A stretch of DNA of 64,000 nt from Alphaproteobacteria bacterium. GTDB lineage: Bacteria > Pseudomonadota > Alphaproteobacteria > Rs-D84. Within the stretch, counting starts at the first letter, position 1; each line of letters opens with the position of its first letter. The translations under genes and the position numbers were made by a program. Location: positions 58,516 through 122,515 of the forward strand of contig JAFZXK010000022.1 of assembly GCA_017616785.1 (NCBI GenBank), in the 5' to 3' direction. Of the stretch, positions 3,706 to 56,672 are shown in pieces. Below the pieces are notes generated by a model. It saw only the letters and a program-made list of their open reading frames with translations, searched no databases and was not told the origin of the DNA.

Positions 3706-4293
3706 ATGTTATATATTATTGGAATTTTGGTCGCCTATGCATTGGGCAGTATTCCGTGTGGATTGGTCCTGTCGCGGATTTTTGGGTATGGCGATTTGCG
3801 CAAGATTGGCAGTGGTAACACCGGTGCCACAAATGCGTTGCGGGCGGGCGGGTTGCGCCTTGCCATCTTGGTTTGGATATTTGATATGGCCAAAGCGGTG
3901 GCGGCGGTTTTAATTGGAAATTGGATTGGCGGCGCGGCGTTTGGTGCGTGGTGCGGGTTTGCCGCTATGGTTGGGCATTGTTTTCCGGTATGGCTTCGTT
4001 TCCATGGGGGCAAGGGGGTTTCGTGCCTGTTTGGAATTTTGATTGCGGTCAATCCGATATTGTTTGTGATTTGCGGAATTGAATGGTTGATTGTCGCGTT
4101 GGGGTTCGGCTATTCATCGTTGGGCGCGGTGGTTGTATTTTGCCTTGCGCCGGTGTTGGGGTTTGCGATTTCGTCGGGTGTTGGATTGGCGTTTTTGGCG
4201 ATGGGGTTGCTCTGTTTATATCGGCATTTGGAAAATATTGGGCGCCTGGTCGGTGGAACAGAATCAAAAATTGTTTGGCGTTGGAAGAAATAA
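3706..4293 (+). CDS. plsY: Glycerol-3-phosphate acyltransferase PlsY
   Basis: GSIPCGLVLSRIFG...GSGNTGATNALRAGG motif; multi-TM protein of 195 aa. Confidence 0.9.
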   Translation: MLYIIGILVAYALGSIPCGLVLSRIFGYGDLRKIGSGNTGATNALRAGGLRLAILVWIFDMAKAVAAVLIGNWIGGAAFGAWCGFAAMVGHCFPVWLRFHGGKGVSCLFGILIAVNPILFVICGIEWLIVALGFGYSSLGAVVVFCLAPVLGFAISSGVGLAFLAMGLLCLYRHLENIGRLVGGTESKIVWRWKK

Positions 4294-7921: not shown

Positions 7922-8020
7922 GCGACACCCCGCCCGCTTTCGCTAGCTATCACCCACAAATTTTTTCAAATTTTGTGGGGCCTGATGCTACAGCGAGGCA
8001 CCCCTCTAGCCAGAGGGGAA
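7922..8020. repeat. A-type half element (GCGACACCCCG...CACCCCTCTAGCCAGAGGGGAA) with extra internal hairpin
   Basis: Same termini as the copies at 19904, 26150, 39645, 45271 and 53246. The internal CCCACAAA..TTTGTGGG hairpin is an insertion. Confidence 0.7.
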
Positions 8021-8061
8021 TTAGGGGATTAAAATAATCATTTTGTCTTTCGGGATTTTTG

Positions 8062-18733: not shown

Positions 18734-19852
18734 ATGGAATTTTCTGTGTTTCGTCAGGTTTTAATTCGTGCACTGGGACACATGCAATCGATTGTTGAAA
18801 AGCGCGCGACTTTGCCGATTTTGATGAATGTAAAGTTGGATGTTTCGGATGATTTGGTGTTGTCTGCGACAAATGTTGATTTGGAATTGATTGAACATGT
18901 TGCGGCCGATGTAACATTGGGTGGCAAAATAACTGTGCCGGTTCAGATGTTATATGATATCGTGCGTAAATTGCCGGACGATGCCGAAATTTCGTTCAAG
19001 CAATCGGGTGATTCATTGGTGGTGTCCAGTGGTCGCGCGGTGTTTCATTTGCCGACTTTGCCGGCGGAAAATTTCCCGGCCATGGCGGGCAGTAATTTAA
19101 CAACCAAGTTTCAAATGACAACGGGTGATTTGGCACACCTTATTAATCAAACAAAATTCGCAATTCCAACCGATGATGTGCGTTATCATTTGGGCGGTAT
19201 TTATTTCCATATTGCAAATGACGACGGTTCGAACAAATTGACCGCGGTCGCGACGGATGCTCAGCGTATGGCACTTTGCGCGATGCCGGCGCCGGCGGGT
19301 TCGGCGGAAATGCCGTCTGTGATATTGCCGCGGCGCGTGATTGGAGAATTGTCAAAGTTATTAGAAGACGCGACCGTTGACGATGTTAATGTTGAATTGT
19401 CTGATACCAAGGCGCGCTTTACGATTGGTGCGGCGATTTTGACAAGTAAACTTGTCGATGCGCAATATCCGAACTATCGCGTCGTTATTCCAAAGGGTAA
19501 TGATAAAATCGCGATTATGGACAGAAAGCAATTCCTTAATGCGGTTGACTTGGTTTCGGTGGCAAGTGTTGATAAAACCAAGTCCGTTCAGTTGACTTTT
19601 TCAATGAATAAATTGGTTGTGAACGCGTCAAGTCCGGATGCCGGAACCGCGACCCAGGAATTGGATGTCGAATATAATGGCGATGCATCATTTACGGTTA
19701 CGTTTAATGTAAAGTTCCTTATGGATGTCGCCGGTCAGGTCGAAGGTGAAAAATTTCAGATGGAAATGCAGGACCCACTTTCGCCGACGATTATACAATC
19801 AACCAACAAAGATACCGATGCACTGTTCATCCTTATGCCAATGCGGATGTAA
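18734..19852 (+). CDS. dnaN: DNA polymerase III beta sliding clamp
   Basis: 372 aa; N-terminus MEFSVFRQVLIRALGHMQSIVEKRATLPIL and C-terminus LFILMPMRM are typical of DnaN. Confidence 0.93.
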   Translation: MEFSVFRQVLIRALGHMQSIVEKRATLPILMNVKLDVSDDLVLSATNVDLELIEHVAADVTLGGKITVPVQMLYDIVRKLPDDAEISFKQSGDSLVVSSGRAVFHLPTLPAENFPAMAGSNLTTKFQMTTGDLAHLINQTKFAIPTDDVRYHLGGIYFHIANDDGSNKLTAVATDAQRMALCAMPAPAGSAEMPSVILPRRVIGELSKLLEDATVDDVNVELSDTKARFTIGAAILTSKLVDAQYPNYRVVIPKGNDKIAIMDRKQFLNAVDLVSVASVDKTKSVQLTFSMNKLVVNASSPDAGTATQELDVEYNGDASFTVTFNVKFLMDVAGQVEGEKFQMEMQDPLSPTIIQSTNKDTDALFILMPMRM

Positions 19853-19880
19853 GATAGTGTAAGTGATTAGTTGTAGGTGT

Positions 19881-19903
19881 GGGCGCGAAAGCGCCCGTTT
19901 TTT
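19881..19903 (+). terminator. Intrinsic terminator after dnaN
   Basis: GGGCGCGAAAGCGCCC hairpin followed by G-T6. Confidence 0.8.
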
Positions 19904-20020
19904 GCGACACCCCGCCCTGCGGGCACCCCTCTAGCCAGAGGGGAATTTTTTTATGTTCTGTTGCGGGCCAAAATTCCCCTCTGGCTAGAGGGGTGGCGGG
20001 TGGAACCCGCCGGGGTGTCG
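19904..20020. repeat. Full-length A-type MITE-like palindromic element (117 bp)
   Basis: Left arm GCGACACCCCGCCCTGCGGGCACCCCTCTAGCCAGAGGGGAA, centre GTTCTGTTGCGG, right arm the inverted copy ending CCGGGGTGTCG. Confidence 0.8.
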
Positions 20021-20034
20021 ATAAAACTTTTATC

Positions 20035-20063
20035 TTGCACAGAGTATGTTTTTATGATACAAT
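20035..20063 (+). promoter_or_regulatory. Sigma70-type promoter of cassette 1 (-35 TTGCAC, 17 nt, TGa-TACAAT)
   Basis: The hexamers are seen directly. An almost identical promoter sits at 53383-53411 upstream of the twin cassette. Confidence 0.65.
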
Positions 20064-20250
20064 ACTTATGCTGGTGGGAATTCCATTGGCGGGGTGTAAC
20101 GACCCTTAGATTCCGAGTGTCCGTGGGGACAAAAAACACCTCCAACCCAAGGTGGTTGGAGGGCGGTGAATATATCGAATAAACCCACTATTTTTCTCGG
20201 AACATAGTCGTTAACCTCCAACCACATGAAAGCAATTTCGGTGGTTTTTT
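20064..20250 (+). ncRNA. Conserved structured 5' leader of cassette 1 (candidate cis-regulatory RNA)
   Basis: Hairpins 20118-20131 and 20139-20162, the box GAATATATCGAATAA (20168-20182), a second CCTCCAACC copy at 20215 and a weak hairpin with T6 at 20220-20250. A homologous arrangement occurs at 53412-53618. Confidence 0.4.
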
Positions 20251-20418
20251 AGTTAGTGGTTAGTGTTAGTGCAAGTGGTTAGTGGGGGAAAATAATTGTC
20301 ATTGCGGCCCCCGAGCCGCAATAGGGAAGGCATGAAAGCCCTATGGCGGACCAAGCCCGCCATGACAAAAAAGAAATAATTGTCATTCTGAACTTGTTTC
20401 AGAACCGCCATGACAAAA
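20251..20418. repeat. TAGTG-rich spacer plus two TTGTCAT...ATGACAA mini-palindromic elements
   Basis: TTAGTGGTTAGTGTTAGTGCAAGTGGTTAGTG followed by two units, each starting AATAATTGTCATT and ending CGCCATGACAAAAA. Absent from the homologous leader at 53.4 kb. Confidence 0.6.
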
Positions 20419-20431
20419 AGTTTGGGAAAAA

Positions 20432-20749
20432 ATGAAGCGATATCTTTTATTATTTTTAATCCTTTTTATTCCGCAAATTGTGCATGCGGATGATGTTGGT
20501 GTTGCCGATACCGATGATATGCAACGCGCGATGCAGATTTCAAAATTGAAACGTGAAATATCCGAACTTGAAATTCAATTATCGGAATGCCAAAGAAAAA
20601 ATAAAAATTGGAAAACGGCGACCTGGATAGGTGCGGCGGGAACGGTGGCGACCGGCGCCGCGGCAATAGTGCAGGGCGTGAAACTAAATAACCTTAAAAA
20701 AGAAAAATCAAATAACAAACCAACCGGGGGGACAAAAGATGAAAAGTAA
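20432..20749 (+). CDS. Cassette protein A1: signal peptide, coiled coil, glycine-zipper segment, K-rich tail
   Basis: Very similar to the 53619-53933 product over its whole length. Signal peptide MKRYLLLFLILFIPQIVHA. 11-nt overlap with the next gene. Confidence 0.7.
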   Translation: MKRYLLLFLILFIPQIVHADDVGVADTDDMQRAMQISKLKREISELEIQLSECQRKNKNWKTATWIGAAGTVATGAAAIVQGVKLNNLKKEKSNNKPTGGTKDEK

Positions 20750-21167
20750 AATAATACTTTTGGTTGGAATGTTTGCATGCGTTTCCGCGTACGGTGAAAC
20801 GGACTATATTGATATGCAAATACATGAATTAGAACAACGTCGCGATGAATTAAAGAAGCAAATTGCGGAGTGTGAACAAAACACGCGCGGTTACAAAATT
20901 GCGGGCATTGCAACACTTGGGGCGACCGGTGTCGGTGTGGTTGGAAATATCGCACTGCATAATGAAATCAAAAAAATTGAACAATCAAAAAACGGTGGTG
21001 GGTACAGTGGGCGTGGTTCGGTCAGTAATACTGTAACTGAAGATACATGCGCATCTGACCCGATTTGTTCGTGGGAACGGCAGTGTGAAATGACGAACTA
21101 TAAAGTAAAAAATTGTGATCATGATACAGATTGTTGTGCCGCGGACGGTTGCCCATGCGAAAAGTAA
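20739..21167 (+). CDS. Cassette protein B1: A-like N-terminal part plus unique Cys-rich tail
   Basis: The first ~93 aa are near-identical to B2 (53923-54309). The last 39 aa contain 8 Cys and are unrelated to the B2 tail. Confidence 0.7.
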   Translation: MKSKIILLVGMFACVSAYGETDYIDMQIHELEQRRDELKKQIAECEQNTRGYKIAGIATLGATGVGVVGNIALHNEIKKIEQSKNGGGYSGRGSVSNTVTEDTCASDPICSWERQCEMTNYKVKNCDHDTDCCAADGCPCEK

Positions 21168-21206
21168 AGTGTTTCTATAAAAACAACAAAACCAAAAGGA
21201 GAAAAA

Positions 21207-21833
21207 ATGAAAAAAACTTTGTTGTCAGTTGTCGCCGGTTTGGCGGTTATAGGGAGTTCGTTTGCTGTTCCAAGTTTGGACAGACAACGTGAAGATTGTG
21301 AGGAAAACCCGAATTTTGTGTGGGTGGAGATGACCAAAACTTGTGTTCCTGTAAATCCGTGTAATTCAGATAATATGGAAATAAAACGTGCTTATTGTGA
21401 TGAGGTAACTTTTGCCGACATTAGTCTTAGTTATATACCTGCGTTGATGGTTATTTCAGCAAAAGAGTATGTAAGAGTTGGATTTGGTGGTGTTGATATG
21501 AAATCAGATTGGGTTTCTGAACCGAATTACATAGGTTTTTCTGATACCAACTTGGGTTCGTATATGGTTTACAAATTTGCCGATGCTAATCTTAGTAGAT
21601 CTTCTGCAACTGAATATTTAAAAGCGTATTGCAGAGCATTTGGTGGTAACGGTGAAAAATATTATAACGATAAAGGTTTTGCGGCGATTGATTGTGAAAA
21701 TCCTGTGGTTCCATATGAAGTTTTAAAAGAACTGACGATATTGGGGACGGATAAGAAGTCAGAAAATATTGTTACATTCTATTTTAGATCAAAGATGGAT
21801 TGTTATTCATATGATGATTGTATGAAAGAATAA
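21207..21833 (+). CDS. Cassette protein C1: secreted protein with Cys-rich N-terminal motif
   Basis: Signal peptide MKKTLLSVVAGLAV identical to C2. Conserved C..NP..VWVE.T..C.P.NPC.SD...I..AYC block; the remainder is strongly diverged from C2. Confidence 0.7.
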   Translation: MKKTLLSVVAGLAVIGSSFAVPSLDRQREDCEENPNFVWVEMTKTCVPVNPCNSDNMEIKRAYCDEVTFADISLSYIPALMVISAKEYVRVGFGGVDMKSDWVSEPNYIGFSDTNLGSYMVYKFADANLSRSSATEYLKAYCRAFGGNGEKYYNDKGFAAIDCENPVVPYEVLKELTILGTDKKSENIVTFYFRSKMDCYSYDDCMKE

Positions 21834-21856
21834 ATGTTATCCGTGCGTTGTTTTTA

Positions 21857-21879
21857 CCCCACCTAATCGGGTGGGGTTT
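21857..21879 (+). terminator. Terminator hairpin CCCCACC-TAATCG-GGTGGGG plus TTT
   Basis: A near-identical hairpin ends the twin cassette at 54990-55009. Confidence 0.65.
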
Positions 21880-21891
21880 GATTATGTGATT

Positions 21892-21920: not shown

Positions 21921-21948
21921 TACTAATCACTAACACTTATCACTAAAA

Positions 21949-23451
21949 CTACGGGCAGGTGGCAAGTTGGTCCAAAACATTTTTCACATCGTCGTTGATT
22001 GCAACGGTTACTTCGCGTTGCAGGCCGTCGATGTATGTCCAATAAAATGGTGAACTTTCAAATTCCGGACTTGCGTTCCACAAATCTACAAACGGTGCAA
22101 GCATTGCATTAAACCACTGACGCCCGCGGCACAGGCAACCATTACGCACGTCCGCGATTGTCATTGCGGTTGCGGTGCCGGAATATTTTTCGTCTATTTC
22201 CGCGTCCGACATCATTAGGCAACGGCCACCAATGTTATAGAAATTCGCATCGTCCGCCAAGAATTTATAAATCAATTCGTTTGACGCGCCCGCTTGTTTT
22301 AATGAATACTTCATGCCTTCGGTGCAACATGCCGACGCCGAACGCATAAGCATTTTATACCGGTCCAGCAGCGGTGCCGCCGCCACAGAATTCGCATCTA
22401 AATTTCCGGTTTGGTTAAATGTGAACAAAATTTCCGTCATGTTTATGCCGCGAATTTTTGGACTGCGTGGTGAAACAGTTTCGCGAATAATTGGTTTACG
22501 ACGCCAAATGTTACATTCTGTTTCGGTATCAAATGGACAACCATCATCAATGCCAATGACACCGGCGCCGAATGCGGTTTGAACTGGAATCGTTAAATCT
22601 TGGGCCGTATAGCGTTCATCGCAAGGCGTTTTGAATGTTGTCGTCATTGTGATGTCTGGGTCGCGGTCGCAAGTTTTAATGTCCGGTGTGGTTATTTCCT
22701 GTTTATTGCCAAGTAATTCTTCGATGCGCGCGTTGGTCGCGGCGGCTTCGGCCATTGTTTGGGCGTACAGGTCCACCAATTCCGTATCGTTCGAATCACG
22801 GATATAAAGTTCCGGCAAACGCATCAACATCCAATCGCGAAAATCCTTGGTCCGGTAATCAGAAATCGAATCGTCCCAAATCGGAACGCCGTTGCGCCAA
22901 TCCACAGTTTTCACATACGATTCGGGTTTATAGTTTCCATCTGTGCCGTCCCAAACCGGTGGCAAATTGTCGGCCTGAACCGGTTTTATAGAAAACAGTT
23001 TCACATTGCGCATCGGAACCAGATTCGACGAAGAATAATCCGCCGCCGCGCGGCCAGTTTTTGCCGTGCGGCCATTGGTCGTGCCACGTGAACCAACCGT
23101 TGCCGTTACAGGGGCGTGATTTATCTGAACACTTTGTTGACCGCCCTGGTTATTCGCAATAATTCTGTTGCCGGGGGTGTGACTGATTTCCACAGATTGA
23201 TAATCTTGGCCATACTGTTCCGCGGTGTCGACCGTTTCAGATTGCTGGGATACCGATATGTCGGTGTAACCGGAATCCGGATAATCAATGTAAACGGATG
23301 TTTGTTCATCACGATAAACTTCGGTCCCGGCGGTGTCCGCGATGGGGTCATATGATATTGTCGCATCGTCCCATTCACTGTCCGATGCAAATGCGCCGCC
23401 CGCGCCAACCGCGCACAACAGCGATGATAAAATAAATATTCTTGTTTTCAT
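21949..23451 (-). CDS. Large secreted Cys-rich hypothetical protein (500 aa)
   Basis: Signal peptide MKTRIFILSSLLCAVGAGGAFA and many Cys in the C-terminal half. No family recognised. Confidence 0.6.
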   Translation of the reverse strand: MKTRIFILSSLLCAVGAGGAFASDSEWDDATISYDPIADTAGTEVYRDEQTSVYIDYPDSGYTDISVSQQSETVDTAEQYGQDYQSVEISHTPGNRIIANNQGGQQSVQINHAPVTATVGSRGTTNGRTAKTGRAAADYSSSNLVPMRNVKLFSIKPVQADNLPPVWDGTDGNYKPESYVKTVDWRNGVPIWDDSISDYRTKDFRDWMLMRLPELYIRDSNDTELVDLYAQTMAEAAATNARIEELLGNKQEITTPDIKTCDRDPDITMTTTFKTPCDERYTAQDLTIPVQTAFGAGVIGIDDGCPFDTETECNIWRRKPIIRETVSPRSPKIRGINMTEILFTFNQTGNLDANSVAAAPLLDRYKMLMRSASACCTEGMKYSLKQAGASNELIYKFLADDANFYNIGGRCLMMSDAEIDEKYSGTATAMTIADVRNGCLCRGRQWFNAMLAPFVDLWNASPEFESSPFYWTYIDGLQREVTVAINDDVKNVLDQLATCP

Positions 23452-23537
23452 GTTTTGAATTATATCATAAATTACACCTGAAAAAAAGATGAAAGTATAA
23501 TTCTTGGTTGATATTTTTTCTGTTTTATTTTAGTTTT

Positions 23538-24347
23538 ATGTTGAAAGGATTTTTTTCGTTGGGAAAGGTTTTGAAATTTTGTTCTGTTTTGTGTTTTTTT
23601 CCGACGGTTGCGGGGGCGTATCCGACAGGGACACAGTTTGGTGTCGGGGTGTCTGCGACCACGGGTATGAACGCCTTTACGGGGTATGTGAACAAAGATG
23701 CCGAATCTTTTTGGGGCAAACGTTTTGGGTATAGAATTGATTTCGCCGGGACGAAAATTGTGCGCTCTGGGATTAATTCGGCGGCTAATCATATAATCGG
23801 CGATCGCGATGTGGAAGTCGGCGATTCCCTCAGTGTTAAGGAGTTTGAGATAGAGGCAAAACATTTCGGCGGTATGGTGGATTTTTACCCGTTTGGGAAT
23901 ACTTGGTTTTTGGGTGCATGGCGCATAAGTGGTGGGTACTATGGTGGGCAATTTGACGCGACGGCGCGTGTTGTTGGCGGCGATGAAAAGGGTGAATTTT
24001 GCCTGGGGCGCAATAGATATAAATATATGGACGGACCGAATCAGGCAAGTGCGACCGCAAATTGGAAATATGATGGGCCGTATGTTGGAACGGGTTTTGA
24101 TTTGGGCGTCTTTGCCGGATTCAAAATTTATTTTGATGCGGGTGTTGTCTTTACGCGCAAGGTTGCAAAGTTAAGTTTGGACGTGCCATCGGATGACCTG
24201 TATAAATGGAACGGTGCGGATTGGGCTTTGGTTGACCCGGACGAATTGGCGGCCGATGTCGAAGATACGCGGCATGACGCACAAAGTGAATTGGATAAAG
24301 TAAAATACTTTCCGATTGTAAAGTTGGGGTTGATGTATCGTTTCTAA
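23538..24347 (+). CDS. Outer-membrane beta-barrel protein (candidate)
   Basis: Signal peptide, alternating-hydrophobicity strands and C-terminal KLGLMYRF ending in Phe. Start uncertain (ORF-track TTG at 23508 or ATG at 23538). Confidence 0.55.
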   Translation: MLKGFFSLGKVLKFCSVLCFFPTVAGAYPTGTQFGVGVSATTGMNAFTGYVNKDAESFWGKRFGYRIDFAGTKIVRSGINSAANHIIGDRDVEVGDSLSVKEFEIEAKHFGGMVDFYPFGNTWFLGAWRISGGYYGGQFDATARVVGGDEKGEFCLGRNRYKYMDGPNQASATANWKYDGPYVGTGFDLGVFAGFKIYFDAGVVFTRKVAKLSLDVPSDDLYKWNGADWALVDPDELAADVEDTRHDAQSELDKVKYFPIVKLGLMYRF

Positions 24348-26115: not shown

Positions 26116-26248
26116 TTAGTGATTAGTGCTAGTGTAAGTGGTTAGGGGGGCGACACCCCGCCCGCTTTCGCTGCGCTACAGCGAGGCCACCCCTCTAGCC
26201 AGAGGGGAACTTGCCCCCACTTACACTGTCCACTAACACTTGCACTAA
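26116..26248. repeat. A-type half element (26150-26209) nested between inverted TAGTG-rich arms
   Basis: TTAGTGATTAGTGCTAGTGTAAGTGGTTAG ... CCACTTACACTGTCCACTAACACTTGCACTAA flank GCGACACCCCG...CCAGAGGGGAA. Confidence 0.7.
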
Positions 26249-39594: not shown

Positions 39595-39807
39595 TCCCCT
39601 TCGCGGGCGAAGGGGGGGACCGCGGGACGCGGTGGGGTAGTGGTGGCGACACCCCGTCCGCTTCGCGTTCACCCCTCTAGCCAGAGGGGAATTTGCGACA
39701 CCCCGCCCTGCGGGCACCCCTCTAGCCAGAGGGGAATTTAGGCCGCAACAGAACGCAATAAAGTTCTCCTCTGGCCAGAGGAGTACGGCGAAGCCGGGAG
39801 GTGTCGC
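39595..39807. repeat. Composite repeat cluster: B module, A half, then a full A-type element
   Basis: B at 39595-39643, A at 39645-39693, and A plus centre plus inverted arm (CTCCTCTGGCCAGAGGAG...GGAGGTGTCGC) at 39694-39807. Confidence 0.8.
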
Positions 39808-39897
39808 AATCAGCAATGGCGGGGTGGTGCGTTTTCTTGTCATTGCGGGAGTCGGTAGAAAGGGGATAAAAAAATTTTCTTTTTCATAAAAAAACAC

Positions 39898-45174: not shown

Positions 45175-45270
45175 CCAAATTTTGTTAGCCTGCGCCAAAA
45201 GCGCAGGCTTAAAAAATTTGAGTGTCGCGACGGAACGAAGTGTAGACGGGCGAAATCTCGGAAAATATTA

Positions 45271-45390
45271 CGACACCCCGTCCGCTTCGCGGCCACCCCT
45301 CTAGCCAGAGGGGAACTTTGTTGCGTTCTGTTGCAGGAGAAAATTCTCCTCTGGCCAGAGGAGTACGGTGTGAAACACCGGGAGGTGTCG
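45271..45390. repeat. Full-length A-type MITE-like element (120 bp)
   Basis: CGACACCCCG...CCCCTCTAGCCAGAGGGGAA, centre GTTCTGTTGCAGG, then CTCCTCTGGCCAGAGGAG...GGAGGTGTCG. Confidence 0.85.
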
Positions 45391-45498
45391 CCACTCTTTC
45401 TGACAGATGGTGAACTTTTGTGTCGTGGTGGAGTGCGTTTTCTATTGTTCGGTATCGTGATTCTGTGATATAATTCTGTGGTAAAAAAAGGAGAAAAT

Positions 45499-51915: not shown

Positions 51916-53166
51916 ATGAAAAGGGTTGTTATTACGGGTATGGGCATTGTGTCGCCGGTTGGTTGCGGTATTGAACATGCGTGGAAAAACATTGTGGCCG
52001 GGCGTTCCGGCGTTCGCAAGATTGAAGATTTCGATGCTTCTGAATTGGCGTGTCAAATTGCGGGCGTGCCGGTGCGTGGGAACGAACCTGGGATGTTTAA
52101 TCCGGACACTGTGGTTGAACCTCGCGACCAACGAAAGATGGATAAATGTATTTTATATGCGGTTGTTGCCGCGGACGAAGCGGTTCGCGACGCGGGCCTG
52201 GATACATATACCGGCGATAAAGACCGCGTCGGCGTTTCGATTGGCAGTGGTATCGGCGGTTTGAACACAATCTATGAAAATTGTATCGAATTGGCGAACA
52301 GTGGACCGCGCCACATCAGTCCGTTCTTTATCCCAAAGTGCATTATCAATATGGCGGCGGGTCATGTTTCGATTAAATACGGTTTGCGTGGCCCGAATGT
52401 TGCGATGGTGACGGCGTGCGCGACCGGTGCGCACAGTATCGGCGAAGGTGCGCGCCTTATTCAACATGGCGATGCGGACATTATGGTTTGTGGCGGGTCC
52501 GAAGGCGCGGTTGGTAAAATCGGTGTTGCGGGATTTTCGGCGATGAAGGCATTAAGTACGCGTAACGATGATCCGGAACATGCGTCGCGTCCGTGGGATA
52601 AAGACAGGGACGGCTTCGTTATGTCCGAAGGCGCGGGTGTTTTGGTTTTGGAAGAATATGAACATGCGGTCGCGCGTGGTGCAAAAATTTATGCCGAGGT
52701 CGCGGGTTACGGCCTGTCCGGGGACGCATATCATATAACTGCGCCGGCCGAAGGTGGCGAAGGTGGCGCGCGTGCTATGATGGCGGCGTTGAATGATGCG
52801 GGGTTAAAGCCGGCGGATGTTGACTATATCAATGCGCATGGAACGTCAACAGGTCTTGGCGATATTGGTGAATTGACGGCGGTAAAGAAATTGTTTGGTG
52901 ATACGGGTGCGTGTATGTCTTCGACCAAGTCCATGACCGGGCACTTACTGGGTGCCGCCGGCGCGGTAGAGGCGATATTCTGTACACTGGCCATTCGCGA
53001 TGGAATTGTGCCGCCGACAATCAATTTGGATAATCCGATTGATGAGGTTGGCGACTTTGATTTGGTGCCGAACAAGGCAAAGAAACGCAAGGTCGATGTC
53101 GCACTGTCCAATTCATTTGGCTTCGGCGGAACAAATGCATCATTGGTGTTAAAGAAAGTGAATTAG
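51916..53166 (+). CDS. fabF: 3-oxoacyl-ACP synthase II
   Basis: KAS II: active-site context ACATGAHSIG, HGTSTGLGD and GHLLGAAG. Confidence 0.93.
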   Translation: MKRVVITGMGIVSPVGCGIEHAWKNIVAGRSGVRKIEDFDASELACQIAGVPVRGNEPGMFNPDTVVEPRDQRKMDKCILYAVVAADEAVRDAGLDTYTGDKDRVGVSIGSGIGGLNTIYENCIELANSGPRHISPFFIPKCIINMAAGHVSIKYGLRGPNVAMVTACATGAHSIGEGARLIQHGDADIMVCGGSEGAVGKIGVAGFSAMKALSTRNDDPEHASRPWDKDRDGFVMSEGAGVLVLEEYEHAVARGAKIYAEVAGYGLSGDAYHITAPAEGGEGGARAMMAALNDAGLKPADVDYINAHGTSTGLGDIGELTAVKKLFGDTGACMSSTKSMTGHLLGAAGAVEAIFCTLAIRDGIVPPTINLDNPIDEVGDFDLVPNKAKKRKVDVALSNSFGFGGTNASLVLKKVN

Positions 53167-53220
53167 TGTAAGTGTTAGTCCCGCCTACGCCAATGGCTAC
53201 GGCGAGGCGGGGGTTAGTGA

Positions 53221-53245
53221 CGGGCGCGAACGCGCCCGTTTTTTT
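53221..53245 (+). terminator. Intrinsic terminator after fabF
   Basis: CGGGCGCGAACGCGCCCG followed by T7, preceded by a TAGTG-rich spacer. Confidence 0.8.
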
Positions 53246-53368
53246 GCGACACCCCGTCCGCTTTCGCTTCGCTACAGCGAGACACCCCTCTAGCCAGATG
53301 GGAACTTGATTCCAGAGTACGAAGTTCTCCTCTGGCCAGAGGAGTACGGCGAAGCCGGGAGGTGTCGC
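53246..53368. repeat. Full-length A-type MITE-like element (123 bp)
   Basis: GCGACACCCCGTCCGC...CCCCTCTAGCCAGATGGGAA ... CTCCTCTGGCCAGAGGAG...GGAGGTGTCGC. Confidence 0.85.
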
Positions 53369-53382
53369 ATAAAACTTTTATT

Positions 53383-53411
53383 TTGCACATAGTGTGATTT
53401 TATGATAAAAT
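53383..53411 (+). promoter_or_regulatory. Sigma70-type promoter of cassette 2 (-35 TTGCAC, 17 nt, TGa-TAAAAT)
   Basis: ATAAAACTTTTATTTTGCACATAGTGTGATTTTATGATAAAAT parallels 20021-20063. Confidence 0.65.
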
Positions 53412-53618
53412 GTGTATCGATATGGCGGGTTGCCATGTCTGGGCATAGAAACCCATTGAGAAGCGTCCTGATTTTTAGGGACGATAAAGAAAACCACCAA
53501 CCAGAGGGTTGGGGTGTTGCGAATATATTGAATAAGCAACGCAATTCTTCTCATTGTTTCTAAGCCCCAATCCACACAGTGGCGTCTGTCATCGTGTGAA
53601 CTTTGAATCGGGGAAAAA
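53412..53618 (+). ncRNA. Conserved structured 5' leader of cassette 2 (candidate cis-regulatory RNA)
   Basis: Hairpins 53464-53483 and 53497-53512 and the box GAATATATTGAATAA (53521-53535), in the same order as in cassette 1. Confidence 0.4.
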
Positions 53619-53933
53619 ATGAAGCGATATATTTTATTATTTTTAATTCTCTTTATTCCGCAAATTGTGTGGGCGGATGATGCCGGTGTTACGGATGCAG
53701 ATATGCAACGCGCAATGCAGATTTCAAAACTAAAACGCGAAATATCGGAATTGGAAATCCAGCTTGCCGAATGCAAAAGAAAAAATAAAAACTGGAAAAC
53801 GGCGACATGGATTGGTGCGGCGGGAACGGTTGCAACCGGAACCGCGGCGATAGTGCAGGGCGTGAAACTAAATAACCTGAAAAAAGAAAAAGCAAATAAC
53901 AAACCAACCGAAGGTGCAAAAGATGAAAAGTAA
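53619..53933 (+). CDS. Cassette protein A2
   Basis: Very similar to A1 over 104 aa. Confidence 0.7.
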   Translation: MKRYILLFLILFIPQIVWADDAGVTDADMQRAMQISKLKREISELEIQLAECKRKNKNWKTATWIGAAGTVATGTAAIVQGVKLNNLKKEKANNKPTEGAKDEK

Positions 53934-54309
53934 AATTCTTTTGTTGGTCGGAATGTTTGCGGCGTTTTCCGCGTATGGCGAAACGGATTATATTGATATG
54001 CAAATTCATGAATTGGAAGTGCGGCGCGATGAATTAAAAAAACAAATTGCGGAATGTGAACAAAACACGCGCGGTTACAAAATTGCGGGAATTGCGACGC
54101 TTGGTGCGACCGGTGTCGGTGTTGTTGGAAATATCGCACTGCATAACGAAATAAAAAAAATCGAACAGTCCAAATCGGGTGGTGGATATAGCGGTGCAGG
54201 AAGTGGTGGTATGAAAGTTGATACACTATCACAAGAACAACGTGATGAATCGTCGTGCAGAGAGTTTGAAAAACTTGGAATTGAATTGCCGGAAGAATGT
54301 AAAAAATAA
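53923..54309 (+). CDS. Cassette protein B2 (conserved N-terminal part, unrelated acidic tail)
   Basis: MKSKILLLVGMFAAFSAYGETDYIDMQIHELE... is near-identical to B1 up to GGGYSG and unrelated afterwards. ATG at 53923 preferred over GTG at 53914. Confidence 0.7.
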   Translation: MKSKILLLVGMFAAFSAYGETDYIDMQIHELEVRRDELKKQIAECEQNTRGYKIAGIATLGATGVGVVGNIALHNEIKKIEQSKSGGGYSGAGSGGMKVDTLSQEQRDESSCREFEKLGIELPEECKK

Positions 54310-54333
54310 AACAACAAACAAAAGGAGTAAAAA

Positions 54334-54966
54334 ATGAAAAAAACTTTGTTGTCCGTGGTGGCTGGTTTGGCCGTGGTAAGTGCCGCGAATGCGGGGATAA
54401 AAGAAACGTGTTTGGAACATCCCGATAAATTGGTATGGGTTGAAAAAACGCAACGGTGTATCCCGATAAATCCGTGTAAATCGGATGACGCAACGATACA
54501 AGATGCTTATTGCAATATAACTTTTGCAAAGGTGCAACTTGGTTCAATAGCACAAGGTCAAAAATTAGTAGAGGCGTATCTTGCTAATAATATGAATGTC
54601 AGCGGATCGTACGTAGGAAATCGGCACAGAGATACCAGTTTATTGGGGCAAGATTTTATACCATACGAACTAAACGATGGTGGTTATGTTGTGTTCGAGT
54701 TTGATGATTTGTCAGATATAACAAAATCGCAGATTGCAGATGGAGCTATGAAAGGTGCGTGTTATGTGTTTGGTGGCTCTTATTGGGGAAATGGTAGTTG
54801 TCACCTTGTGGATAGTGACGCGATTTGTGAAGACGTGGCAGAACTTGCGACATCTGTTAGCGATCAAGTTATGCATTGGTCGTTTGATGAGAAGGAACTC
54901 ACCCTATCGGATTCTAGTGATGAAATATTCACTGTAAAGAGATGTGTGATAAGTGTGGTAGAGTAA
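54334..54966 (+). CDS. Cassette protein C2
   Basis: Same signal peptide and Cys-rich N-terminal block as C1. The remainder aligns only weakly (GGYVVFEFDD...GACYVFGG vs GSYMVYKFAD...AYCRAFGG). Confidence 0.7.
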   Translation: MKKTLLSVVAGLAVVSAANAGIKETCLEHPDKLVWVEKTQRCIPINPCKSDDATIQDAYCNITFAKVQLGSIAQGQKLVEAYLANNMNVSGSYVGNRHRDTSLLGQDFIPYELNDGGYVVFEFDDLSDITKSQIADGAMKGACYVFGGSYWGNGSCHLVDSDAICEDVAELATSVSDQVMHWSFDEKELTLSDSSDEIFTVKRCVISVVE

Positions 54967-54989: not shown

Positions 54990-55009
54990 CCCCACCCAAT
55001 CGGGTGGGG
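54990..55009. terminator. Terminator hairpin CCCCACCC-AATC-GGGTGGGG
   Basis: Twin of 21857-21879, between convergent genes. Confidence 0.65.
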
Positions 55010-55013
55010 TTGT

Positions 55014-56672
55014 TTATTTCTCTTCGTCTTTGCCAAGGCCGATGGTTTTTTTAGCGCTGTCCAGTGTGCGAATAAGGGCGCGGCGGATTTTGCCGGATAT
55101 GGTCATTGGTAAACTGTCTACAAATTCAATTACGCGCGGATATTTGTATGCCGCGGTGCGGTTGCGAACATGGTCTTGCAACTGACGCACAAGGACATCC
55201 GTGCCTTGGAAATATTTGTTCAAAACGATTGTCGCCTTGACCGCCATACCGCGCGATGGGTCCGGAATGCCGGTGACAGCAACCTCCCTTACCGCGGGGT
55301 GTTCAAGCAGGACACTTTCAACCTCAAACGGACTTATGCGGTATCCCGATGATTTAATCAAATCATCATTGCGGCCGACGAACCAATAATATCCATCCGA
55401 ATCGCGATATGCGACATCGCCGGTGTGATAATATCCATCACGAAATGCCGCGGCGGTCAGTTTTTCGTTTTTGTGATATTTTTGGAACATTCCAACCGGG
55501 CGGCCGTTTGCAACCGATATGCAGATTTCACCAACCTTGCCATCCGCGACCGGGCGGCCGTCTTCGTCAATAAGTTTTATATCCCATCCGGCGGCGGGCA
55601 TACCCATACTGCCCGGTTTCGGTTTTATCCATTGATTAGTGAACAATTGAACGGTTGTTTCGGTTTGACCGAATCCTTCGTGCAATTCAATTCCCGTCAT
55701 GTCAAGAAAACGTTCATAAACCTCTGGATTTAATGCTTCGCCCGCGACATCGGCCTTTACCAATTTAGAAAGGTCATATTTTGATGCGTCCGCATGAATC
55801 AGCATTTTATAAACCGTTGGCGGCGCGCAGAAAGATGTTACACCGTTATCCGCCATCGCCGCCCAAAGGTCGTGCGCGTTGAAAATACCACTAACATCAA
55901 AAATGAACACAGTCGCGCCCGCAAGCCATTGACCGTACATTTTCCCCCATGAACATTTTGCCCAACCCGATTCGGAAAGTGTGAAATGAACATCGCCGTC
56001 GGTCAACCTTTGCCAAAACACCGCGGTGTTTATATGTCCCAATGGATAAGCGTAATTGTGTGCGACCATTTTTGGCATGTCGGTTGTGCCACTGGTAAAA
56101 TAAATTACCATTGTGTCGGTGTTTTCGTTTGGAACGCGTTCAAATGTGTCAGGCATAGTATTTATCGAATCGGCAATTTCATCGTTTGATATCAACATAA
56201 CATCCGAATCGCCAATCGCAGATTTTATTTCGGGAATAATGTGTCCATCGTCAAAGGCAATGATTGCTTTGCTTTCCGCCGTATCGATTCGGTATTTAAT
56301 ATCTTCGGCCTTTAACTGATTCGTTGACGGAATAGGGATAATGCCGGTTTTGTGCATTGCCATCATCAAAACCCAGTATTCCCAGCGGCGACGCAAGAAT
56401 AATAAAACAGTGTCGCCCTTTTTAAGTCCGCGCGAAACCAAATAATTCGCAACCGCGTTCGACATGCGTGACAGGTCGGAAAAAGTAAAAAACTTTTTAT
56501 CGCCCGAATCGTCAACCCAAATAATCGCCCGCTTTTCCGGCGTTTCGCGCGCGATGACATCGATAACATCGTATGCAAAGTTAAAGTTTTCCGGGACAAT
56601 TGGTGTTCCGTTTTGCAGATAATCTTCGTAATTTTCAAATTTTTCTTTGGTTAAAAAACGCGTCGCGAACAT
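55014..56672 (-). CDS. AMP-forming acyl-CoA synthetase (medium-chain/acetyl-CoA synthetase-like)
   Basis: AMP-binding motifs YFTSGTTDMPKMV and YHTGDVAYRDSDGYYWFVGRNDDLIK. ATG at 56672 after RBS GAGGAAAC. Confidence 0.8.
   Translation of the reverse strand: MFATRFLTKEKFENYEDYLQNGTPIVPENFNFAYDVIDVIARETPEKRAIIWVDDSGDKKFFTFSDLSRMSNAVANYLVSRGLKKGDTVLLFLRRRWEYWVLMMAMHKTGIIPIPSTNQLKAEDIKYRIDTAESKAIIAFDDGHIIPEIKSAIGDSDVMLISNDEIADSINTMPDTFERVPNENTDTMVIYFTSGTTDMPKMVAHNYAYPLGHINTAVFWQRLTDGDVHFTLSESGWAKCSWGKMYGQWLAGATVFIFDVSGIFNAHDLWAAMADNGVTSFCAPPTVYKMLIHADASKYDLSKLVKADVAGEALNPEVYERFLDMTGIELHEGFGQTETTVQLFTNQWIKPKPGSMGMPAAGWDIKLIDEDGRPVADGKVGEICISVANGRPVGMFQKYHKNEKLTAAAFRDGYYHTGDVAYRDSDGYYWFVGRNDDLIKSSGYRISPFEVESVLLEHPAVREVAVTGIPDPSRGMAVKATIVLNKYFQGTDVLVRQLQDHVRNRTAAYKYPRVIEFVDSLPMTISGKIRRALIRTLDSAKKTIGLGKDEEK

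Follow-up and report, generated by a model that had tools for sequence, protein, structure and literature searches.

The 64-kb window analyzed here (the whole stretch of DNA, to which coordinates given without a locus number refer) belongs to the ~0.9-Mb genome of a Candidatus Enterousia-like (Rs-D84) alphaproteobacterium and contains two copies of a three-gene operon, A-B-C, whose products all carry predicted signal peptides. The operon is multi-copy and is specific to the Candidatus Enterousia/Rs-D84 lineage. Its copies join conserved arms, consisting of A and residues 1-90 of B, to payloads, consisting of the B tail and C, that have been exchanged between loci and genomes, and most of them are preceded by a structured leader RNA of ~190 nucleotides (nt). 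With its six helices, its pseudoknot and its two platform types, this leader is a new and well-supported candidate for a riboswitch or attenuator. In the reading that we favor, and to which we give an even chance of being correct, the operon would encode a leader-gated, exported, disulfide-bonded envelope or surface module, in which A and B form the anchor and C the variable head.

An initial annotation had described the two loci as sharing one layout, namely a promoter, a leader, A, B overlapping A, C, and an operon terminator of the form CCCCACC..GGTGGGG, and the open reading frames (ORFs), promoters and terminators were found as described. An upstream element that it classed as an A-type miniature inverted-repeat transposable element (MITE) proved to belong to a palindromic repeat family with further copies in the window. 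The features of the two loci are as follows.

Locus 1, 18734-19852: dnaN, the upstream neighbor
Locus 1, 19879-19898, + strand: intrinsic terminator of dnaN, an 8-bp GC-rich stem followed by a T run
Locus 1, 19899-20022, no strand assigned: palindromic MITE-like repeat (GCGACACC...GGTGTCG), a long perfect hairpin with related copies in the window
Locus 1, 20036-20063, + strand: sigma-70 type promoter with an extended -10 element (TGCACA-16-TG-TACAAT)
Locus 1, 20064-20250, + strand: structured leader RNA, transcription-terminator variant (nhmmer E 3e-44; without an Rfam match)
Locus 1, 20251-20431, no strand assigned: repeat insertions (TAGTGGTTAGTG repeats and a palindromic element) between the leader terminator and gene A
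Locus 1, 20432-20749, + strand: gene A1, 105 amino acids (aa), with a signal peptide, a coiled coil with a single Cys, a glycine-zipper helix and a K/E-rich tail
Locus 1, 20739-21167, + strand: gene B1, 142 aa, overlapping A1 by 11 nt, with a Gly-rich linker and an 8-Cys tail of type T1
Locus 1, 21180-21253, + strand: conserved joint, made up of the B-C spacer, the ribosome-binding site (RBS) and the region coding for the C signal peptide (86-94% nt identity across loci and genomes)
Locus 1, 21207-21833, + strand: gene C1, 208 aa, with a signal peptide, a 4-Cys N-module (residues ~24-65) and a variable alpha/beta domain
Locus 1, 21856-21877, + strand: operon terminator ACCCCACCTAATCGGGTGGGGT
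Locus 2, 51916-53166: fabF, the upstream neighbor
Locus 2, 53219-53240, + strand: terminator of fabF
Locus 2, 53241-53375, no strand assigned: MITE-like palindromic repeat
Locus 2, 53382-53411, + strand: promoter with an extended -10 element
Locus 2, 53412-53618, + strand: structured leader RNA, variant 2, without a canonical U tract (nhmmer E 1e-32)
Locus 2, 53619-53933, + strand: gene A2, 104 aa
Locus 2, 53923-54309, + strand: gene B2, with a 2-Cys tail of type T2 (the ATG at 53923 was adopted as its start; the ORF lister had the GTG at 53914)
Locus 2, 54334-54966, + strand: gene C2, 210 aa
Locus 2, 54990-55009, + strand: operon terminator CCCCACCCAATCGGGTGGGG

Alignment of the two copies revealed a mosaic. 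Nucleotide identity is ~87% from 20421, just before A, to about codon 90 of B at ~21000 (blastn, 86.9% over 579 nt for 20424-21001 against 53611-54185), drops to background level in the B tail, and returns to 89% over the B-C spacer, the RBS and the first ~38 nt of C (21180-21244, matched by blastn to 54308-54371). In a sliding window of the global alignment, the C N-module shows 55-68% identity (21300-21410) and the remainder of C is at background. The drops at ~21000 and ~21250 are sharp and divergence is not uniform, in agreement with the mosaic conservation reported initially. Shorter blastn matches cover the repeat and promoter (19881-20063 against 53222-53411) and the terminator (21857-21885 against 54990-55017). 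Searches of the window by tblastn returned exactly two copies, with E values of 3e-59 for A1/A2, 1e-48 for B1/B2 and 3e-21 for C1/C2. A and B also matched each other (E 8e-6 to 3e-4, 33-34% identity), and the proposal that they are paralogs is thereby upheld. The mature C proteins had been said to align only weakly. Nucleotide identity is weak in mature C, but C1 and C2 are true homologs, 34% identical and with an invariant 4-Cys N-module. The B tails, described as unrelated, indeed share no identity between the window loci, but they belong to about four discrete types that are conserved in other genomes. Synonymous divergence (dS) between the window copies is 0.52 in A, 0.93 in residues 1-93 of B and 1.0-1.6 in C, and the ratio of nonsynonymous to synonymous divergence (dN/dS) is 0.12 in A and 0.06 in B 1-93. 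Since dS in the arms is appreciable, the likeness of the window copies in A and B reflects purifying selection and an older homogenization, and not a very recent event.

The suspicion that two copies in 64 kb signaled a larger family was confirmed. C1 is identical to the hypothetical protein J5714_04675 of a rumen metagenome-assembled genome (MAG) labeled only as an alphaproteobacterium; the same contig also carries a paralog, J5714_04470, while a B-type gene, J5714_00520, is found on a different contig. At least four A-B-C-type loci are present in this source genome (J5714_04470, J5714_04665-04675, J5714_00520 and the fabF locus). A metagenome scan with the C N-module gave at least four loci. 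A scan of one genome per species with a single N-module pattern identified 28 loci in 18 related MAGs, all from rumen or gut and labeled Candidatus Enterousia, Alphaproteobacteria or proteobacterium. At 50% identity the A/B family has 177 representatives, of which the 150 listed span 68-220 aa, and at 90% it has 299 clusters; the C family comprises 92 clusters. No member of either carries a functional annotation, and the few source names displayed all read "hypothetical protein". Across 312 kb of related loci (cited below by L numbers), the gene order A>B>C is near-universal and an A/B overlap of 4-14 nt is kept, while tandem C-C arrangements occur in four loci. Three positions are syntenic: window locus 1 follows dnaN, window locus 2 follows acpP-fabF, and loci at the third position lie upstream of a LysM-M23 peptidase gene. 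The operon family occupies >1% of the ~0.9-Mb genome.

One lineage, represented by RUG12172 and RGIG3440, has C genes that stand without A and B, indicating that C can function without them. RUG12172 has at least six such solitary C-type genes (L019, L022, L026 and L028 are among the loci cited), behind a plain promoter and without the leader; a C-type gene of RGIG3440 that lacks A and B comes directly after a copy of the leader (L025 2538-2693). Also in RUG12172, a TATGATATAAT promoter is separated from a C-type gene by a (GA)n repeat of ~14-15 units (L034 ~3878-3915; L020 ~25-55), a possible phase-variation tract.

The conserved-arm, variable-payload recombination suggested by the initial annotation was supported by comparisons between genomes, in which the arms group by genome and not by syntenic locus across five lineages. 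Within one genome, identity between arms is 91-98%, falling to 78% in SGB4624, the most divergent genome: residues 1-90 of B are 94-98% identical among three loci of J5714, and all loci of five further MAGs, which make up a second group, share 89-99% identity in the arms, whatever their position. Between J5714 and this second group, the arms share only about 71-77% identity, positional orthologs included, with 73-76% for J5714 against its own positional orthologs, even though DnaN is 99.5-99.7% identical between these lineages; at the nucleotide level, dnaN is 91% identical and the arms 74-76%. Because the three chromosomal positions are common to the lineages, the duplications are older than the split, and the similarity of arms within a genome indicates concerted evolution by gene conversion.

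Payloads follow a course of their own. At the LysM-M23 locus, the B tail and C of L001 (J5714) and L007 (RGIG2769) are 96-100% identical, whereas the arms are 72-74% identical. At the nucleotide level, the arms of this pair show 63-78% identity and the segment from the last third of the B N-terminal region through the tail and C shows 92-100%, including 240 nt without a difference, which exceeds the identity of the flanking genes and of dnaN (~91%). At the dnaN locus, by contrast, the J5714 and RGIG2769 lineages carry tails of types T1 and T3, and C proteins that are 22% identical. Two N-types of B are each joined to several tail types. The N-modules and C-domains of C also recombine: the C proteins P0006 and P0008 are 47.5% identical in the N-module and 95% in the C-domain, while P0008 and the C2-like P0002 are 85% and 19% identical, respectively. 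Conserved joints occur at the Gly-linker end of the arm, at the B-C spacer and C signal peptide (86-94% nt identity in every locus), and at the terminator, whose locus 1 type is present in 9 of 25 related loci; together with the C N-module, they are obvious homology blocks for payload exchange. Orphan or silent promoterless 3' cassettes, whose existence had been anticipated, were not seen in the available flanks of up to 10 kb, and every examined locus is a complete operon that has a promoter of its own.

These comparisons bear on two simpler explanations. The operons might be ordinary lineage-specific paralogs with a housekeeping role in the periplasm or envelope, their mosaic arising from differing constraint, without recombination or any role in variation. 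The fixed syntenic positions would suit such genes, and with dS at 0.5-0.9 in the arms and 1.0-1.6 in C, purifying selection alone could explain the conserved blocks. We nevertheless consider this explanation very unlikely. Grouping of the arms by genome in five lineages, a payload shared by L001 and L007 that is more similar than either their arms or dnaN, unrelated payloads at the dnaN locus despite 99.5% identical DnaN, and the combinatorial pairing of N-types with tails and of N-modules with C-domains all argue against it, and differential constraint alone is contradicted by the cross-genome comparisons. Least probable of all, in our judgment, is that the cassettes are the cargo of a mobile element or a MITE-flanked prophage remnant, apart from host physiology. 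MITE-like repeats do flank and interrupt the loci, an integrase lies ~2 kb upstream of the fabF locus in L002, and near-identical payloads occur in diverged genomes. However, three chromosomal positions between housekeeping genes are occupied in many genomes, multiple copies are kept in genomes of ~0.9 Mb, no locus contains a transposase or integrase, and no phage or defense family was matched; the synteny contradicts cargo status.

The three proteins share a Sec-type (signal peptidase I) signal peptide with an Ala-X-Ala-like cleavage site, as read from the sequence. Mature A and B consist of three to four heptads, in which a conserved single Cys occupies a d position right after the last a-position Leu or Ile, followed 7-11 residues later by a helix of ~20 Gly, Ala, Thr and Val residues, several faces of which show small-xxx-small spacing. 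The remainder of A is a Lys/Glu-rich tail, and that of B a Gly-rich linker followed by one of the tail types, which contain 2, 4, 8 or 8 Cys. Exactly one mature Cys is present in 156 of 162 A-type proteins, the Cys count is odd in 64 of 70 B-type proteins (one plus an even tail) and even in 77 of 88 C proteins. This parity suggests that the proteins carry disulfides outside the cytoplasm and that A and B dimerize in parallel, linked by an interchain bond between their lone coiled-coil Cys residues, and the conserved overlap of the two genes implies translational coupling and equimolar synthesis. Conservation in the C family is extreme in the signal peptide and extends over the 4-Cys N-module, while the fast-evolving C-domains diverge to 18-26% identity. 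A model of C1 built with 73 family members (predicted local distance difference test (pLDDT) score 85.4, predicted template modeling score 0.79) shows a small N-module of helix, beta hairpin and helix, followed by repeated alpha-beta-beta units. Foldseek searches of the PDB and BFVD with this model found no similar fold (best E 0.07 and 0.007, template modeling score ≤0.2), and a profile search with the C-domain alone returned family members only.

None of the three proteins had been recognized in the initial annotation, and searches of Pfam, NCBIfam, PADLOC, PHROGs and PDB sequences gave nothing beyond weak compositional matches and no functional family for A, B or C. Several more specific assignments were considered and rejected. 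A matched the alpha-xenorhabdolysin XaxA family (NF033928) at E 1e-6, with 28 bits against a cutoff of 125 and only over profile positions 175-241; B gave no match, a profile search of PDB sequences returned none of XaxA, YaxA or ClyA, and the similarity is treated here as compositional, arising from a coiled coil and a hydrophobic segment. A lipoprotein assignment for B was dropped, as the Cys of its "MFAC" motif is Ala in B2 and many homologs. An apparent fusion of a C signal peptide and N-module to an M23 peptidase (P0068, on the 956-nt contig L040) was also set aside: at nt ~320, the contig turns into sequence unlike any Enterousia locus, so that it is most likely a metagenome assembly chimera, and its end looks, from the N-terminus, like a Firmicute-type NAD-binding gene.

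These features could alternatively describe a toxin, the main rival to the favored reading. A and B would then be a Sec-exported, membrane-active pair (pore-forming, bacteriocin- or cytolysin-like), with C as a targeting, carrier or protective factor and the leader holding a self-toxic operon off. Adjacent, coupled small paralogs with small-xxx-small helices are found in two-peptide bacteriocins and glycine-zipper channel formers, the sub-threshold match of A falls in the coiled-coil and hydrophobic head region of XaxA, the leader control is tight, and an organism without standard transporters may tap partner cells. We regard this explanation as unlikely, given that A and the N-terminal region of B are homogenized and under strong purifying selection (dN/dS 0.06-0.12) while only the tails and C vary, that no double-glycine leader, ABC/C39 exporter or membrane immunity gene occurs at any locus, that XaxA, YaxA and ClyA are absent from the PDB profile matches and are ~350 aa in size against ~85 aa for the mature protein, and that C-only genomes exist. 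Behind the resemblance to toxin loci noted initially, no signature of a toxin or of immunity was found.

The "long leader" of the initial annotation is present and proved to be a structured, conserved RNA, after which repeats have been inserted in locus 1. It is always in the sense orientation, upstream of A or directly before C where A and B are absent, and the promoter type of locus 1 also precedes it in other loci. Window positions 20025-20254 are 96% identical to the orthologous region of L018, above the identity of dnaN itself. Alignment of 15 distinct leaders defined an 8-bp 5' hairpin (P1); a 4-bp hairpin (P2), whose loop pairs with a stretch of 6-7 nt ~100 nt downstream to form an H-type pseudoknot; a long-range helix of 6-10 bp (P3), enclosing hairpin P4, P5 and a stem capped by a conserved loop, GAAUAUAUnGAAUAA; and a 9-bp hairpin (P5) with strands S1 and S2. 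A second copy of S1, termed S3, begins 1-3 nt past the pseudoknot and overlaps the 5' arm of an intrinsic terminator. In the window, these elements are located as follows.

Locus 1 leader, P1: 20070-20077 with 20083-20090
Locus 1 leader, P2: 20091-20094 with 20103-20106
Locus 1 leader, pseudoknot: 20097-20103 with 20207-20213
Locus 1 leader, P3: 20111-20117 with 20196-20202
Locus 1 leader, P5 (S1 with S2): 20139-20147 with 20154-20162
Locus 1 leader, S3: 20216-20225, overlapping the terminator at 20220-20250
Locus 2 leader, P1: 53419-53426 with 53432-53439
Locus 2 leader, P2: 53440-53443 with 53452-53455
Locus 2 leader, pseudoknot: 53446-53452 with 53556-53562
Locus 2 leader, P3: 53457-53463 with 53547-53553
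Locus 2 leader, P5: 53497-53502 with 53507-53512
Locus 2 leader, S3: 53564-53573

Homologous leaders were searched for with nhmmer, and covariation was counted directly on P1, P2 and the pseudoknot, which align naturally; a hand alignment was used in addition, since the MAFFT alignment placed P3 wrongly. In the naturally aligned helices, 98.3% of cells pair and 14 of 18 base pairs change on both sides. Their covariation score is 0.81, compared with 0.29 in shuffled alignments (none of 500 reached the observed value) and ≤0.19 with slid partners, and when P3 is counted too, along with the pseudoknot, double-sided changes occur in 31 of 38 pairs. In the hand alignment, P3 is represented by 12 different helix sequences and the pseudoknot by nine different 7-mers, all complementary; as P3 was found by a helix search, its 100% pairing is partly by construction, and its fixed position and sequence diversity are the real evidence for it. 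S1, S2 and S3 covary, giving three variants: CCUCCAACC/GGUUGGAGG for S1/S2 in the first; CCUGACC/GGUCAGG, with S3 CCUCCUGGCC, in the second; and CCAACC/GGUUGGGG, with S3 CCCCAAUCC, in the third. The alternative S2:S3 helix is 90% paired, with compensatory changes in 6 of 10 pairs. Minimum-free-energy folds of the single sequences (z scores of -4.5 and -4.3) recover P1, the long-range helix, P3, P5 and the terminator.

S1 and S3 are thus alternative partners for S2, and an AACC sequence is common to S3 and the terminator stem. This choice of partners and the overlap between S3 and the terminator are most simply read as a terminator/antiterminator switch, in which a folded aptamer-like domain favors termination. 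In the locus 2 leader, which has no U tract, S3 is partly complementary to the Shine-Dalgarno (SD) region, a weak hint that variant 2 leaders are under translational control by SD occlusion. Neither leader matched any of the 4227 Rfam families; a scan of the window at the gathering thresholds returned two tRNAs only, and E-value scans of both leaders gave only spurious hairpin matches. A leader peptide was rejected as an explanation: a GUG-initiated ORF after S2 has 13 codons in the window and 3 in L023, is absent from other leader variants, and is not conserved. In Enterousia SGB_4685, a leader copy lies between efp and the FBP aldolase gene (L039 4640-4834), where the window has no counterpart, and precedes a 75-aa ORF without a signal peptide (L039 4858-5085; MFGTVITDNPLPQTVIKALY...). 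The leader regulon is therefore not limited to A-B-C.

Repeats are a further feature of the leader-to-A interval. Between the leader terminator and A, they amount to ~180 nt in locus 1, while most orthologous loci are without them and the leader ends 10-60 nt before gene A in other loci. The palindromic repeat family has at least six copies or fragments in the window (19899-20022, 53241-53375, 39646-39809, 45268-45391, 26150-26213 and 7987-8022). Two palindromic MITE-like families are scattered in the ~0.9-Mb genome, one of them inserted before A1 at 20289-20431, a segment that matches repeats in L001 and L013; in L001, a member of this family is inserted right at the A start region. Short TAGTGGTTAGTG-like repeats lie near intergenic terminators in the window (20251-20290 and 21922-21946) and in other Enterousia MAGs (L011, L015, L017 and L024 among others).

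In the mechanism that we favor, A and B would form a disulfide-stapled parallel heterodimer that oligomerizes, or anchors in the membrane, through its glycine-zipper helices, and C would be the variable component facing a ligand or partner, so that the family could supply variation at the interface of the cell with a host, partner cell, phage or antibody. The leader would act as an OFF-type attenuator or riboswitch. Formation of the aptamer-like fold (P1, P2 with the pseudoknot, and the P3-enclosed junction with P5) would leave S3 free and allow the terminator to form; in variant 2, free S3 may occlude the SD sequence instead. When S2 is paired with S3, the terminator would be blocked and A-B-C transcribed.

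Several observations weigh against this mechanism. The glycine-zipper helices are only marginally hydrophobic (best 19-residue Kyte-Doolittle means of 1.32 in A and 1.59 in B), which makes membrane insertion uncertain, and disulfides are not guaranteed in an anaerobe without a respiratory chain. No outer-membrane export route was identified, so that "surface" could be "periplasm". An AlphaFold2 model of the B monomer from 32 sequences had a pLDDT of 48 and was unusable for fold searches, and no homology match in the libraries searched points to a function for A, B or C. Co-variation of B tails with C as evidence for contact was rejected, as T2 occurs with at least three C types and T1 with at least three; nor does the C N-module track arm type, and co-evolution that would speak for a complex of A/B with C was therefore not found. 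The leader precedes an unrelated 75-aa ORF in one genome, is missing from L015 and from the C-only genes of RUG12172, and could be a protein- or RNA-controlled attenuator and not a riboswitch.

A bolder version of the favored reading can also be formulated, in which the A/B pair would be a new small disulfide-stapled channel or fusion apparatus (SNARE- or pore-like in layout) that connects these genome-reduced, transporter-poor bacteria to partner or host cells, C an interchangeable subunit for recognizing the partner, and the leader a new riboswitch class that times deployment by sensing a partner-derived or envelope-related metabolite. We consider this version decidedly unlikely. Members of Enterousia, a group placed in the order Rs-D84, have genomes of 0.75-1.0 Mb from which a TCA (tricarboxylic acid) cycle, respiration and standard transporters are all missing, and dependence on a partner has been proposed for them; Rs-D84/Enterousia are widespread in animal and human guts (PMC12306168). 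The operon family is a prime candidate for the machinery through which Rs-D84 bacteria interact with partners, hosts or phages. The ligand of the leader would reveal the signal that controls deployment of the system, and the C model is confident and has no counterpart in the PDB or BFVD.

Other observations were made in the vicinity of the loci. A 500-aa protein encoded next to locus 1 (21949-23451, - strand) carries a signal peptide, is Cys-rich in its C-terminal half and matched no family; it evolves very fast, being 76% identical between genomes whose DnaN is 99.5-99.7% identical, and its place as downstream neighbor is conserved at the dnaN locus only. The following ORF (23508-24347, + strand, ~269 aa) has a hydrophobic N-terminus and ends in ...KLGLMYRF, a C-terminal aromatic signature of the kind that typifies outer-membrane beta-barrels; the gene table of L004 lists no Pfam family for the ortholog. 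The LysM-M23 peptidase gene at the third syntenic position (L001 1787-3322 and orthologs) is fast-evolving, with ~69-71% aa identity between lineages and segments of very low nucleotide identity. GC skew in the window is positive or near zero in every 2-kb bin (minimum -0.06, up to 0.28) and cumulative skew rises near-monotonically, without the inversion that would mark an origin, despite the presence of dnaN, gyrB and dnaJ.

Two aspects of the system are of known kinds, gene-converted variable secreted or surface families and leader-RNA attenuation, while the A, B and C families, the C fold and the leader RNA have no described relatives in the libraries searched. Variable surface families that diversify by gene conversion include vls and vsp-vlp of Borrelia, pilE/pilS and opa of Neisseria, vlp/vsa of Mycoplasma and msp2 of Anaplasma. 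Like these, the A-B-C family has several paralogous loci in a small genome, conserved 5' parts, signal peptides and promoters, hypervariable mature regions, segment reshuffling and concerted evolution of paralogs. It differs from them in that each locus is a full promoter-bearing operon of three genes, with no silent cassettes in flanks of up to 10 kb, that the variable protein is neither a lipoprotein nor a pilin, and that it is accompanied by two conserved coiled-coil/glycine-zipper partners and a structured leader RNA. Glycine-zipper outer-membrane lipoproteins (SlyB/Pcp, the 17-kDa antigen) are a poor fit for these partners, which gave no match in Pfam, including its glycine-zipper clan, and lack a conserved lipobox Cys.

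Polymorphic toxins (CdiA-CT of contact-dependent inhibition (CDI), Rhs, MafB) likewise join a conserved N-terminal module to highly variable C-domains, exchange modules between strains, and are comparable to C in its occasional tandem arrangement. C, however, is only ~190 aa when mature and apparently adopts one common fold; downstream of it come a terminator and genes that are unrelated or on the opposite strand, and no immunity gene, no toxin domain was found in Pfam, NCBIfam or PADLOC, and no secretion genes occur at any locus. With class IIb two-peptide bacteriocins and class II microcins, A and B share adjacent, overlapping small genes and helices rich in small residues (GxxxG-type), but they carry Sec signal peptides in place of double-glycine leaders, have no ABC exporter or immunity protein at their loci, belong to a diderm, and are ~85-120 aa when mature, with a coiled coil and an interchain-type Cys. 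Alpha-pore-forming toxins of the ClyA/XaxAB type (NF033928, ~340 aa) were matched only below the cutoff and not over the full-length architecture.

The leader resembles terminating OFF riboswitches, such as those with H-type pseudoknots of the SAM-II/preQ1-II type and junction aptamers, in being a covarying 5' RNA with an H-type pseudoknot, in its mutually exclusive antiterminator and terminator, and in having transcriptional and putative translational variants. It differs in having no Rfam match, in preceding genes for exported proteins, which offer no hint of a ligand, and not genes for metabolism or transport, and in using a duplicated 9-nt strand (S1/S3) that competes for S2. The combination of a coiled-coil/glycine-zipper pair, a variable Cys-rich partner and a pseudoknotted leader in a 0.9-Mb genome is new.

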